Below are positions 1 to 4,213 of a DNA stretch of 4,213 nucleotides, one piece after another (the first letter of the stretch is position 1; each line of letters starts with the position of its first letter). The position numbers were made by a program, and so were the translations under genes. Below the pieces are notes generated by a model. The model did not search any database, had not been told where the DNA came from, and saw only the letters and a program-made list of their open reading frames with translations. The stretch comes from a virus (Duplodnaviria; Heunggongvirae; Uroviricota; Caudoviricetes): IMG/VR virus record IMGVR_UViG_2706794687_000006; one strand, 5' to 3'.

Positions 1-60
1 CGTCTGGGGAATATCTCCCCGGCAGCCTTCAGGGAAAAATATCATCAGATGGCTGCTTAA
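1..60 (+). CDS. 3' end of an upstream gene (partial; 19 codons then TAA at 58-60), probably the structural gene preceding the sheath gene
   Basis: Frame 1 is open from position 1 to the TAA at 58-60 (RLGNISPAAFREKYHQMAA*), co-oriented with the downstream tail genes. Too short to assign a product. Confidence 0.3.
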   Translation, partial: RLGNISPAAFREKYHQMAA

Positions 61-102
61 AAAAAGAACAAATGGTAGTGTCCGCTATTGCCAGTACACC
101 TC

Positions 103-112
103 AAGGATAAGG
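103..112 (+). promoter_or_regulatory. Shine-Dalgarno region for the sheath gene (AAGGA at 103-107, AAGG at 109-112)
   Basis: Purine-rich AAGGATAAGG lies about 10 nt upstream of the ATG at 123. Confidence 0.4.
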
Positions 113-122
113 CTAAAAAATC

Positions 123-1619
123 ATGACGATAAGTTTTAATACTGTTCCGTCGAATACGCTGGTGCCGTTGTTCTACGCCGAGATGAACAATTCTGCGGCA
201 AATACAGCGGTGACCAGCGCGCCTGCATTACTGATCGGGCATGCCAGCAACGATGCAGCCATTGAGGTTAACAGCCTGGTGCTGATGCCATCGGCAGATT
301 ATGCCCGCCAGATTTGTGGGGCGGGGAGCCAGCTGGCGCGTATGGTGGAAGTCTACCGTCAGACAGATCCTTTCGGTGAACTGTATGTTATTGCAGTACC
401 GGAAGCCAGAGGGGCGGCGGCGACGGTCAGGGTGACGGTTGCCGGAGAAGCAGAGGAAAGCGGCACCCTGAGTCTGTATGTCGGGCGCTCCCGTGTACAG
501 GTGCCTGTGGTGAATGGCGATGATGCCACTGCGGTTGCCACCGCGATTAAGGAAGCGGTAAACGGGGTTATCACCCTGCCGTTTACGGCGTCATCTGATG
601 CAGGTGTGGTGACGCTGACTGCCCGTCATAAGGGGCTGTATGGTAATGAGTTACCGGTCTGTCTGAATTATTATGGTTCTGGTGGTGGTGAGATTCTGCC
701 AGCAGGGCTTCGGGTGGTGACGGAAGTCGGTGCTGCCGGTAGCGGAGCGCCTGATCTTACCGCCGCTGTTGCTGCTATGGGCGATGAGGCATTCGACTTT
801 ATCGGTCTGCCGTTCAACGATGCCGCCTCCATCAATATGATGATGACCGAAATGAATGACAGCAGCGGTCGCTGGAGTTATGCGCGCCAGTTATACGGGC
901 ATGGCTATACCGCAAAACTGGGAACGCTGTCAGAGCTGGTTGGTGCCGGAGATATGCATAATCAGCAACATATCACGCTTGCCGGTTACGAAAAAGAAAC
1001 CCAGTCGCCTGTCGATGAACTGGTTGCCAGTCGCCTTGCCCGTGAAGCGGTATTTATCCGGAATGATCCTGCCCGTCCGACACAGACGGGGGAGCTGGTG
1101 GGGATGCTTCCGGCACCGAAAGGTAAGCGATTCATCATGACAGAGCAGCAGACCCTTTTATCTCACGGCGTGGCGACGGCTTATGTGGAAGGCGGCACGT
1201 TGCAGATCCAGCGTTCCGTAACCACCTACAAAAAGAATGCGTATGGCGTGGCAGACAACAGCTATCTGGACAGTGAAACTCTGCATACCAGTGCATATGT
1301 TCTTCGCAAACTGAAATCGGTCATCACAAGCAAGTACGGACGTCACAAGCTGGCAAATGATGGTACCCGTTTTGGTCCGGGGCAGGCGATTGTCACTCCT
1401 GCCGTTATCAAAGGGGAACTTCTGGCGACATATCGTCAGATGGAGCGTGCCGGTATTGTGGAAAATTACGATCTGTTTAAACAGTATCTGATAGTTGAGC
1501 GTGATGCAGATAACCCGAACCGACTGAATACGCTGTTCCCGCCGGATTATGTTAATCAGTTACGTGTCTTTGCGGTGGTTAACCAGTTCCGTCTTCAGTA
1601 TTCAGAGGAGTCAGCATAA
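123..1619 (+). CDS. Phage contractile tail sheath protein (Mu gpL-like family), 498 aa
   Basis: Long uninterrupted ORF with ATG start and upstream SD. Its size (~500 aa) and position directly upstream of a 118-aa tube gene, chaperone and TMP follow the sheath-tube-chaperone-TMP order of myovirus tail modules. The N-terminus (MTISFNTVPSNTLVPLFYAE...) resembles Mu-type sheath proteins as I recall them, but this is not verified by search. Confidence 0.8.
   Translation: MTISFNTVPSNTLVPLFYAEMNNSAANTAVTSAPALLIGHASNDAAIEVNSLVLMPSADYARQICGAGSQLARMVEVYRQTDPFGELYVIAVPEARGAAATVRVTVAGEAEESGTLSLYVGRSRVQVPVVNGDDATAVATAIKEAVNGVITLPFTASSDAGVVTLTARHKGLYGNELPVCLNYYGSGGGEILPAGLRVVTEVGAAGSGAPDLTAAVAAMGDEAFDFIGLPFNDAASINMMMTEMNDSSGRWSYARQLYGHGYTAKLGTLSELVGAGDMHNQQHITLAGYEKETQSPVDELVASRLAREAVFIRNDPARPTQTGELVGMLPAPKGKRFIMTEQQTLLSHGVATAYVEGGTLQIQRSVTTYKKNAYGVADNSYLDSETLHTSAYVLRKLKSVITSKYGRHKLANDGTRFGPGQAIVTPAVIKGELLATYRQMERAGIVENYDLFKQYLIVERDADNPNRLNTLFPPDYVNQLRVFAVVNQFRLQYSEESA
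1605..1610 (+). promoter_or_regulatory. Shine-Dalgarno (GAGGAG) for the tube gene, inside the 3' end of the sheath gene
   Basis: GAGGAG at 1605-1610 sits 8 nt before the ATG at 1619. The sheath stop TAA (1617-1619) overlaps that ATG as TAATG, indicating translational coupling. Confidence 0.5.
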
Positions 1620-1975
1620 TGGCAAAGATCGCCGGAACCTGTTTTTTTAAAGTGGATGGTCAGCAGTTATCGCTGACAGGTGGCATTGAAGTGCCGATGA
1701 ACACCAATGTCCGGGATGACATCGTCGGCATGGCAGGGGATGTGGATTACAAGGAGACCTGGCGGTCACCTTACGTTAAGGGCACGTTTAAAGTGCCCAA
1801 AAACTTTCCGGTCGACAAAATTACCACCTCAGACCAGATGACGATTACCGCTGAGCTGGCAAACGGCATGGTGTATGTGCTTTCGGCGGCATGGCTGCAC
1901 GGAGAGGCTAATCATAATGCCGAAGAAGGCACGGCAGATCTTGAATTCCACGGCGAAGAGGGAGGGTATCAGTAA
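1619..1975 (+). CDS. Phage tail tube protein (Mu gpM-like), 118 aa
   Basis: 118-aa ORF immediately after the sheath gene with a TAATG overlap. Size and position are typical of the tube protein in contractile tail modules; the family assignment is from recall only. Confidence 0.75.
   Translation: MAKIAGTCFFKVDGQQLSLTGGIEVPMNTNVRDDIVGMAGDVDYKETWRSPYVKGTFKVPKNFPVDKITTSDQMTITAELANGMVYVLSAAWLHGEANHNAEEGTADLEFHGEEGGYQ
1961..1965 (+). promoter_or_regulatory. Shine-Dalgarno (GGAGG) for the chaperone gene
   Basis: GGAGG at 1961-1965 lies 9 nt upstream of the ATG at 1975. The tube stop TAA (1973-1975) overlaps that ATG as TAATG. Confidence 0.5.
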
Positions 1976-2064
1976 TGGCAATGAACGTTACAGAAATAGT
2001 TTTAAAAAAACCGGTGACAGCGCATAACGAAATGCTGCATGTGCTGGAGTTGCGCGAGCCCACG
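1975..2064 (+). CDS. Tail assembly chaperone (P2 gpE / Mu gp41-like), 5' portion only; the remainder is hidden in the N-run
   Basis: ATG at 1975 is coupled to the tube stop. The N-terminus MAMNVTEIVLKKPVTAHNEMLHVLELREPT resembles the conserved N-terminal region of tail assembly chaperones, which sit between tube and TMP genes. The ORF runs into the N-run at 2065. The ORF-track continuation after the gap (RVPEPQYWGRW...) is in the wrong frame and is not part of this protein. Confidence 0.55.
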
Positions 2065-2115
2065 NNNNNNNNNNNNNNNNNNNNNNNNNNNNNNNNNNNN
2101 NNNNNNNNNNNNNNN
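2065..2115. other. Run of 51 N (masked or unsequenced gap)
   Basis: Directly visible in the sequence. Coding frame differs on the two sides (codon starts are 1 mod 3 before, 0 mod 3 after), so the run does not represent in-frame continuous sequence of its stated length. Confidence 0.95.
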
Positions 2116-3946
2116 CGGGTGCCGGAACCGCAGTACTGGGGGCGCTGGCGCTCCCGGTCAAATCTGCCATTGCCCTTGAATCAAAAATGGCGGATGTCCG
2201 GAAAGTGGTGGATGGTCTGGATACGCCGGAAGCGTTTAAGGCAATGACGGAGCAGGTGCGCGANNNNNNNNNNNNNNNNNNNNNNNNNNNNNNNNNNNNN
2301 NNNNNNNNNNNNNNNNNNNNNNNNNNNNNNNNNNNNNNNNNNNNNNNNNNNNNNNNNNNNNNNNNNNNNNNNNNNNNNNNNNNNNNNNNNNNNNNNNNNN
2401 NNNNNNNNNNNNNNNNNNNNNNNNNNNNNNNNNNNNNNNNNNNNNNNNNNNNNNNNNNNNNNNNNNNNNNNNNNNNNNNNNNNNNNNNNNNNNNNNNNNN
2501 NNNNNNNNNNNTACCGGTCCTGCAAGTGCGAAAAAGATTTCTGATGTTGTGACCCGTATTGGCCCTTTAGGCAGTGTTGCGGGTGTGGCCTCCGGAGAGA
2601 TTGCCGCAATGGGGGCAACCATTGCCGGAATGGGGGTGGAGTCAGAAATTGCTGCGACGGGGATAAAGAATTTTATGTTGTCGCTGACAGCGAGGGATTC
2701 TGCCACCAAATCGCAGAAAAAAGTGCTCCGCTCGTTGCGCATTAGCCCGAAAAAACTGGCGGCGGATATGCAGAAAGACGCCCGCGGGGCCATGCTGCAC
2801 GTACTGGATTCTCTGGCAAAAGTGCCGAAAGAAAAACAGGCTGCTGTGCTGAAAGCGCTGTTCGGGAAGGAATCCCTGGGGGCCATTGCGCCGCTGCTCA
2901 CGAATCTGGATTTGTTGCGAACCAACTTTAATCGTGTGGCGGATGCGCAGCAGTATGGCGGCTCAATGCAGAAAGAATATGCCGCCCGTGCCGCGACGAC
3001 AGAAAATCAGTTGTTGCTGCTGCAGAACCAGATCAATGCGATTTCTTCCACGCTGGGGGAAACCTTCCTGCCTTCACTCAATGAAGGCATAAAAGAGATG
3101 AAGCCTTTTCTGGAAGAAGTGCGCACGTTTGTCAGAGAAAATCCTGAGGTCGTAAAAACCATCGCGAAAACTGGTGCGGCATTACTGACGATGGGCGTGG
3201 CGATTGGCACATTGACACGCATAACAAAAATCATGGGTAGCGTGATGAATATGACGCCGGCAAAGGGATTAATTGCGCTTCTCGTCGGTGGTGCATATCT
3301 CATAATTGATAACTGGGAAACGGTCGGTCCGGTTGTGAAAAAAGTCTGGCAGGAGGTTGATCAGGTTGTCAGAGCAATGGGGGGATGGGAACAGGCAGTA
3401 AAAACAATAGCAACGGTTTCTGCCCTGTATATTGGTGTGAAGGCGGTGGCAAGTATTCGTGCGGCAACAGTCGCCCAGAATCAATGGACAACGGCGGCAG
3501 GAAAAACAGGGCTGAAATTAAAGGGCCTCGGAAAGATCAGTCTGATTGGTGGATTGCTTGAACTGGGCATGATGGCGCAGGAGTTTGAAAAAGCACATCC
3601 CTGGCTTGTTAAAAATTTTGTGGCTGATGCACTGAACAGTGGATTTGGTCTGAATGATAAGTTCGACGAGTGGGGCAAACAGTTCCATGATTTTGTCTAT
3701 GACATGACCGGATGGCAGATGCCACGTGGTGATGGGTATTTATCTCCCGATAAACGCTACACCCCGAATGTATCACTGGAAAGGAATCAGCTGTTAAGCC
3801 TTGCATCTTCACCGGCAACCCGCAGCGAACTTAAGGTGACGTTTGACAACGCGCCGCCTGGAATGCGCGTTATCGATTTGCCGAAAACAGGCGATCCCTT
3901 TATGAAAATCACCCATGATGTTGGGTATTCTCCATTTAAAAGGTGA
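2116..3946 (+). CDS. Phage tail tape measure protein (TMP); 5' end not visible, interrupted by the N-run 2264-2511, stop TGA at 3944-3946
   Basis: Segment 1 (2118-2263, codon starts 0 mod 3) translates to GAGTAVLGALALPVKSAIALESKMADVRKVVDGLDTPEAFKAMTEQVR, which resembles the conserved TMP core motif as I recall it. Segment 2 (2513-3946, codon starts 2 mod 3) is open from the gap edge: TGPASAKKISDVVTRIGPLGSV...LFGKESLGAIAPLL..., followed by several long hydrophobic stretches typical of TMPs. The ATG at 2187 and GTG at 2549 used by the ORF track are internal codons, not true starts. Confidence 0.8.
2264..2511. other. Run of 248 N inside the tape measure gene
   Basis: Directly visible. TMP coding frame shifts from 0 mod 3 before to 2 mod 3 after, so the stated length is not frame-consistent with the flanks. 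Confidence 0.95.
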
Positions 3947-4013
3947 GTTCTTTTTTTGTGGTGAAAGATGAGGCAAAATTATCGCGTAACATGCTAACAA
4001 TGGAGTTTGTTTT

Positions 4014-4145
4014 GTGATAAAGCCATTTTTAATGACGGTTGCAATATTAACCTCTTGCTGTGCTCAGGCGAAAATACTAACAAATGAGGAGATTGTTTCA
4101 CGATTTATTAGTAACGTTAAAACGGTGATGCTGCCAACTTACTGA
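4014..4145 (+). CDS. Candidate small exported protein or lipoprotein (43 aa) of unknown function; hypothetical
   Basis: GTG start at 4014 preceded by GGAG (4002-4005) with 8-nt spacing; stop TGA at 4143-4145. Translation: MIKPFLMTVAILTSCCAQAKILTNEEIVSRFISNVKTVMLPTY. It has a Lys-containing n-region, a hydrophobic core, a lipobox-like L-T-S-C (Cys15) and an alternative A-Q-A signal peptidase I motif. Short ORFs can be chance, and the region is AT-rich. Confidence 0.35.
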   Translation: MIKPFLMTVAILTSCCAQAKILTNEEIVSRFISNVKTVMLPTY

Positions 4146-4213
4146 TTTAGTGTATGATGGTGTTTTTGAGGTGCTCCAGTGGCTTCTGTTTCTATCAGCT
4201 GTCCCTCCTGTTC

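Follow-up and report, generated by a model that had tools for sequence, protein, structure and literature searches.

N-runs of probably unfaithful length over the tail chaperone and tape measure genes of a probable phiP27-like prophage remnant of Shigella sonnei

Related tail modules and the window

In phage lambda the slip site of the tail chaperone gene is G_GGA_AAG, and in the general scheme it is the short chaperone product that coats the tape measure protein (TMP). According to the lambda model, the two chaperone products both bind the TMP through their common part, the extension of the longer one brings in the tube protein for polymerisation of the tube around the TMP, and neither product is found in the virion (PMC5009743). 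In P2, a -1 shift at TTTTTTG yields E (91 aa) and E+E' (142 aa), and P2-type sites have been reported without a downstream RNA structure (PMC3091744). Mu was reported to use a -2 shift (PMC5009743).

The window analysed here is the whole of a 4213-nt stretch of the IMG/VR record IMGVR_UViG_2706794687_000006 (Table 1). Its closest described relatives are genes L44-L47 of phiP27 (NC_003356) and a locus of Shigella sonnei Ss046 (CP000038.1), both of which, like the window, carry sheath, tube, chaperone and tape measure genes in the same order. The visible segments share approximately 96-99% DNA identity with phiP27 and 100% with Ss046, and the stretches hidden in the window by two runs of N measure 457 and 240 nt in both. 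Unlike phiP27, which is a complete phage, the S. sonnei copy is truncated by an IS600 on its upstream side and by an IS1 on its downstream side. The chaperone start of phiP27 is annotated 6 nt later (giving 109 aa), and the small ORF that follows the tape measure gene in the S. sonnei copy is absent from phiP27.

Several traits of the E/E+E' pair of P2 recur in these copies, namely a gene located between tube and tape measure in a contractile-tail operon, a match to PF10109, a T-rich X_XXY_YYZ heptamer located around codon 90, a 142-aa fused product and the absence of downstream RNA structure. There is, however, no BLAST-level similarity (P2 was absent from the tblastn matches at E <= 1e-3), the heptamer ends in T instead of G, the short product has 111 rather than 91 aa, and the extension gave no match to the P2 GpE' domain (PF06528), the 142-aa fusion being searched at E <= 0.01. 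As with lambda G/GT, two products with a common N-terminus would result from infrequent -1 shifting shortly before the tape measure gene (PMC5009743), which is the mechanism assumed here; the lambda tail, in contrast, is non-contractile and the sequences are unrelated. The resemblance to Mu (gpL sheath, gpM tube) is seen in the homologues of phage ST64B, which are annotated 'similar to Mu gpL/gpM', and in PF10109, which also covers the Mu gp41 chaperone. Unlike Mu with its reported -2 shift (PMC5009743), the conserved extension here lies in the -1 frame.

Table 1. Features of the window, with positions counted from its first nucleotide
Feature	Position	Strand	Evidence or content
IS600 (IS3 family) right end: last OrfB codons and terminal inverted repeat	1..103	+	100% match to annotated copies
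Tail sheath, 498 aa, intact	123..1619	+	PF04984, PF17482, PF17481; sheath annotation in relatives
Tail tube, 118 aa, intact	1619..1975	+	PF10618, E = 1.4e-33
Tail assembly chaperone, visible codons 1-30	1975..2064	+	Identical to the 111-aa chaperone of N-free copies
N-run 1, 51 N for 457 nt	2065..2115	+	By N-free copies: chaperone codons 31-111 and stop, slip site, extension, TMP codons 1-43
Tape measure codons 43-92, visible island	2116..2263	+	100% identical to TMP of L012, L041-L049
N-run 2, 248 N for 240 nt	2264..2511	+	By N-free copies: TMP codons 92-172, inside PF10145 domain
Tape measure codons 172-649 and stop	2512..3946	+	Restored TMP 649 aa, PF10145
160-aa hypothetical ORF, 5' fragment (37 codons), cut by IS1	4014..4123	+	
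IS1 left end, right border of the probable remnant	4124..4213	+	100% match, 'IS1-like element IS1A family transposase'

The N-runs and their counterparts in N-free copies

A position scan of the window placed the two N-runs at exactly 2065-2115 and 2264-2511, and recomputation returned the reading frames given in the first-pass annotation for the three visible coding segments: 1 (mod 3) for the chaperone, from its start at 1975; 0 for the tape measure island, read from 2118; and 2 for the 3' part of the tape measure gene, read from 2513. The annotation had argued from these frames that both runs are off by the same single nucleotide and that the gap lengths are unfaithful. Both points were borne out by the N-free copies described below, in which the first run corresponds to 457 nt (1 mod 3) in place of 51 N (0 mod 3) and the second to 240 nt (0 mod 3) in place of 248 N (2 mod 3). 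Each N-run is thus one base short modulo 3, which produces the visible 1/0/2 pattern. The two sides of the first run belong to two different genes, the chaperone and the tape measure; they share a frame because the tape measure ATG lies 420 nt after the chaperone ATG, and frame continuity across this run is a coincidence of gene spacing, not the mark of a single ORF.

Thirty-six related loci were assembled from E. coli genomes, phiP27, species-representative genomes, IMG/VR and metagenomes and compared with the window by segment-by-segment BLAST. Megablast against complete E. coli genomes and phages located the same module in phiP27 and in many prophages, and the matching span was always about 390-400 nt longer than the window. 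Exact scans of genome, viral and metagenome contigs gave 33 N-free relatives and no copy containing the Ns; exact-product look-ups of the X-containing ORFs had no match, and that of the 465-aa ORF matched another isolate alone. The stretch under the first run, suspected from the outset of compressing several hundred bases, is 457 nt long in 34 of the 35 loci covering it and 458 nt in the remaining one, while that under the second run is 240 nt in all 34 covering loci. When the 845-nt hidden region was used as query, at least 80% of it was carried in one place by 52 of the 53 matching E. coli records; among the 30 matches listed, every one was a single aligned piece of 842-845 nt.

The most useful of these copies is a 4498-nt draft contig, IMGVR_UViG_2690316343_000004 (L012), which has no N, includes both IS junctions and shows zero mismatches to the three visible segments over window positions 54-4153. 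In place of the 51 and 248 N it has stretches of 457 and 240 nt. Exchanging the Ns for these stretches gave a restored window of 4611 nt. Ten complete chromosomes were then retrieved by an exact-product look-up with the sheath protein of the window. The restored sequence is identical at every base in nine of them, Ss046 (CP000038.1) among these, and differs from the tenth at one base; the gene calls in all ten are 498, 118, 111 and 649 aa. In the assembly collection, 2065 blocks record this sheath protein, and for 1888 of them the longest contig with it measures 2-5 kb, as would follow if short-read assemblies ended at the IS copies on either side. The window extends further into both IS elements than L012 does, which places its origin in another assembly, either of the same strain or of one nearly identical to it. 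From these identical loci we infer that the content under the Ns of the window is the same as theirs.

On this comparison the N-runs are very probably not biological at all but assembly gaps or masks, with lengths unequal to the DNA that they replace. Runs of 51 and 248 N around a 148-nt island would be compatible with scaffold gaps whose size was estimated and which may have been filled in part, with the caveat that for a scaffolder a misestimate of 406 nt is a big one; just as possible are masks of arbitrary length introduced at a later stage. A repeat-induced assembly break found no support, the 845-nt hidden region being single-copy in the closest complete E. coli genome, and no reason for a break at the site of the N-runs was found.

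Were the N lengths faithful after all, the window would have suffered a 406-bp deletion, in which most of the chaperone gene was lost along with the slip site and the tape measure start, together with an 8-bp insertion in the tape measure gene, and its tail module would be decayed and out of frame. Simple masking would indeed preserve length, and a functionless, IS-bounded remnant tolerates indels, as illustrated by the 7-bp tape measure deletion of isolate ERR137872 and the 1-nt insertion of locus L018 (both described below). Against this, the nine complete genomes and the one draft contig that are identical to the visible window carry the 457 and 240 nt, such a deletion was seen in none of the 36 related loci, and the 52 E. 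coli records (of 53) that hold at least 80% of the hidden stretch do so without it. Both indels would also need to fall wholly inside the N-runs and spare every visible base right up to the Ns, which makes faithful lengths very unlikely. A genuine chaperone-TMP fusion, with one ORF running from 1975 into the tape measure core, is more improbable still, to the point of being negligible. It may be suggested by the mere 51 N between the two genes in the window and by their common frame in intact copies. However, every N-free copy has a chaperone TGA after 111 codons and a separate tape measure ATG 84 nt later, and with 51 N the chaperone and tape measure sides are not even in frame. For all the identical copies, as far as their sequences tell, the fusion is refuted. 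The first-pass annotation had itself named a continuous chaperone-TMP ORF and genuine frameshift mutations as observations that would speak against it; both were looked for in the identical copies and both were absent, and the sequence comparison supports its interpretation in all parts. Gaps or masks of unfaithful length are accordingly the reading retained in what follows.

The chaperone, its slippery heptamer and the tape measure protein

The annotation had expected a full chaperone of 90-140 aa under the first run, and the restored gene encodes 111 aa, or 142 aa when frameshifted. The 111-aa protein matches PF10109 (Phage_TAC_7; 'Phage tail assembly chaperone proteins, E, or 41 or 14') with 29.8 bits against a cut-off of 25, a match made with the protein restored from identical loci, since the 30 visible residues are too short alone. 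It also matches phrog_166, 'tail protein', with E = 5e-28. The position of the gene, between the tube gene (1619-1975) and the downstream tape measure gene, is that of a PF10109-type chaperone.

A slippery heptamer, T_TTT_TTT, is found at chaperone codons 89-90 in the identical N-free loci, at restored positions 2238-2244 of a chaperone gene spanning 1975-2310; in the window it would lie under the first N-run, where a -1 frameshift site had been anticipated. From the heptamer the -1 frame stays open for 52 codons and ends 5 nt past the tape measure ATG (restored ATG at 2395, TGA of the extension at 2400-2402), giving a frameshifted product of 142 aa, whereas the 0 frame continues for 21 codons beyond the heptamer to complete the 111-aa product. 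The run of seven T is invariant in 34 of 34 related loci, each of which also has the 52-codon -1 ORF. These close relatives are too similar for a codon-position analysis of the extension, which found only five variable sites.

More divergent relatives were therefore compared. Tblastn with the 142-aa fusion returned 20 phage records with at least 80% query coverage, and in the 19 listed of these 20 the match came in two pieces. Identity to the fusion is 69% in ST64B (Salmonella), 44% in YeP2 (Yersinia), 40% in AH07 (Pantoea) and 37% in EPP-1 (Edwardsiella). At the equivalent codons all four have T_TTT_TTY, following ...GFF, ...RFF or ...NFF, and a -1 extension of 52-53 codons that stops 7-10 nt past the first base of the tape measure start. 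The motifs (W/Y)(F/Y)W(K/R)(L/I/M)NP and RI(N/E) are common to the four extensions. Heptamer and extension are present in every one of these phages, and the slip site and the extension, the latter at protein level, are conserved beyond the immediate lineage. In PHROG, the 142-aa fusion gave weak matches to families of unknown function. No downstream RNA structure was detected, the 90 nt after the heptamer folding no better than shuffled sequence (z = -0.10).

Other candidate recoding sites were considered and rejected. The in-frame chaperone heptamers TTTAAAA, AAAAAAA and GGGTTTT lead in the -1 frame to stops after 5-6 codons. A Mu-type -2 (+1) extension was also discarded; the +1 frame is open for 44 codons and gave no tblastn match, the conserved extension being in the -1 frame. 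Within the visible part of the gene, an in-frame A_AAA_AAA at window positions 2004-2010 (chaperone codons 11-12), with TTTAAAA just before it, occurs in all close relatives. Slipping by -1 at this point would run into a stop after 5 codons and yield a 17-aa peptide.

On the model of lambda G/GT and P2 E/E+E', the 111-aa chaperone would be completed by most ribosomes; the smaller share that slips back by one base on T_TTT_TTT would produce a 142-aa protein with the same first 90 residues. The occurrence of frameshifting and the roles of both products are inferred from those systems. The longer product might instead come from slippage of RNA polymerase on the seven T, with one U added in some of the mRNAs. 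This lineage shares a homopolymer of this length with ST64B and YeP2. For transcriptional slippage to be efficient, roughly nine or more residues are usually required. The process itself is known on A/T runs in bacteria, including Shigella (PMC5009743). However, the site of AH07 and EPP-1 is T_TTT_TTC, with only six T and yet a canonical X_XXY_YYZ in the right frame, which argues for a ribosomal mechanism, and P2 uses its TTTTTTG ribosomally (PMC3091744). Polymerase slippage is considered unlikely on these grounds, and ribosomal -1 frameshifting is the preferred explanation.

Two observations on individual loci are relevant to this gene. In L018 (IMGVR_UViG_2529292715_000008), a 1-nt G insertion (GG to GGG) about 28 nt past the slip site, at restored position ~2272, lengthens the stretch under the first run to 458 nt and leads the 0 frame directly into the extension frame, so that a 142-aa ORF results without frameshifting. 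This could be either a natural 'always fused' mutant or a homopolymer sequencing error. It was also observed that the annotations of L001, L002, L003 and L037-L040 list the short chaperone ORF alone, without the 142-aa product, and show an 'empty' gap of approximately 84-140 nt before the tape measure gene.

The restored tape measure gene is intact, and its 649-aa product is the one called in the 10 complete genomes. PF10145 (PhageMin_Tail) matches residues 88-290 with 152.8 bits (cut-off 33.2; E = 1.4e-44), and this match, together with the position after the chaperone gene, identifies the protein as the tape measure. As had been proposed, its N-terminus (residues 1-43) lies in the stretch under the first run in the N-free copies. 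The residues of the visible island, 43-92, cover the part just before the PF10145 domain and its start from residue 88. In one isolate (L051, Logan contig ERR137872_442), a 7-bp deletion at restored positions 2875-2881, lying under the second N-run, divides the gene into ORFs of 182 and 465 aa, which indicates that the locus can decay.

The remnant and its surroundings

Judging from its borders and from its complete counterparts, the window is in all likelihood an IS600- and IS1-bounded remnant of a phiP27-like prophage of S. sonnei. The IS600 end matches copies annotated as 'IS3-like element IS600 family transposase', and the OrfB C-terminus, ...HSRLGNISPAAFREKYHQMAA, was also found in L005. 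At the other border, similarity to the relatives stops at window position 4123, and InsA domains are called just downstream of the IS1 end of the window in complete genomes. Both bordering elements are multicopy insertion sequences, and the window is thus a short contig or scaffold that spans the interval between them. In S. sonnei the remnant is preceded by an IS4-family element, a 120-aa piece of a head protease and IS600, and on its downstream side the small ORF after the tape measure gene is truncated by IS1. No baseplate or head genes adjacent to the S. sonnei remnant were present in the complete genomes examined, and the four tail genes are therefore probably relics without current function.

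Although IS600 and IS1 have removed all other parts of the prophage, the core of sheath, tube, chaperone and tape measure genes, slip site included, is intact, and nine of the ten complete S. sonnei chromosomes carry it without a single base difference. It could be supposed that the four-gene cassette has been retained because the host uses it, and not because the S. sonnei clone is too young for decay to have set in. Since the clone is young and the copies are identical, intactness is uninformative about selection, and retention through use by the host is thought highly improbable.

In S. flexneri SFBU1023 and E. coli ECMA0423 (L004/L005), the same IS600 end is located 485 nt further upstream (L005 5035-5626), and the interval before the sheath gene still holds ORFs of 118 and 53 aa. 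A distance of 19 nt separates the IS600 end from the sheath ATG in the window and in S. sonnei, a shorter spacing that suggests an IS-adjacent deletion. On the opposite side, the ORF of which the window retains the start has 160 aa when complete, as annotated in L001 (5809-6291) and L002 (7113-7595), and the N-terminus of its product resembles a signal peptide or lipobox (MIKPFLMTVAILTSCCAQ...). The place of this ORF in E. coli prophages is between the tape measure and DNA circularization genes. phiP27 lacks it and IS1 truncates it here, so this ORF may represent a moron-type insertion.

The locus is an already known and repeatedly sequenced prophage remnant, and the feature hidden in it is a textbook tail-chaperone frameshift site, so that the case, a record artefact over an ordinary prophage remnant, is of small biological weight. 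Its consequence is for the reading of the record: the N-run lengths in IMGVR_UViG_2706794687_000006 are untrustworthy, 51 N standing for 457 nt, and gene calls or frame arguments made across these runs would falsely suggest a chaperone-TMP fusion or a frameshifted tape measure gene.
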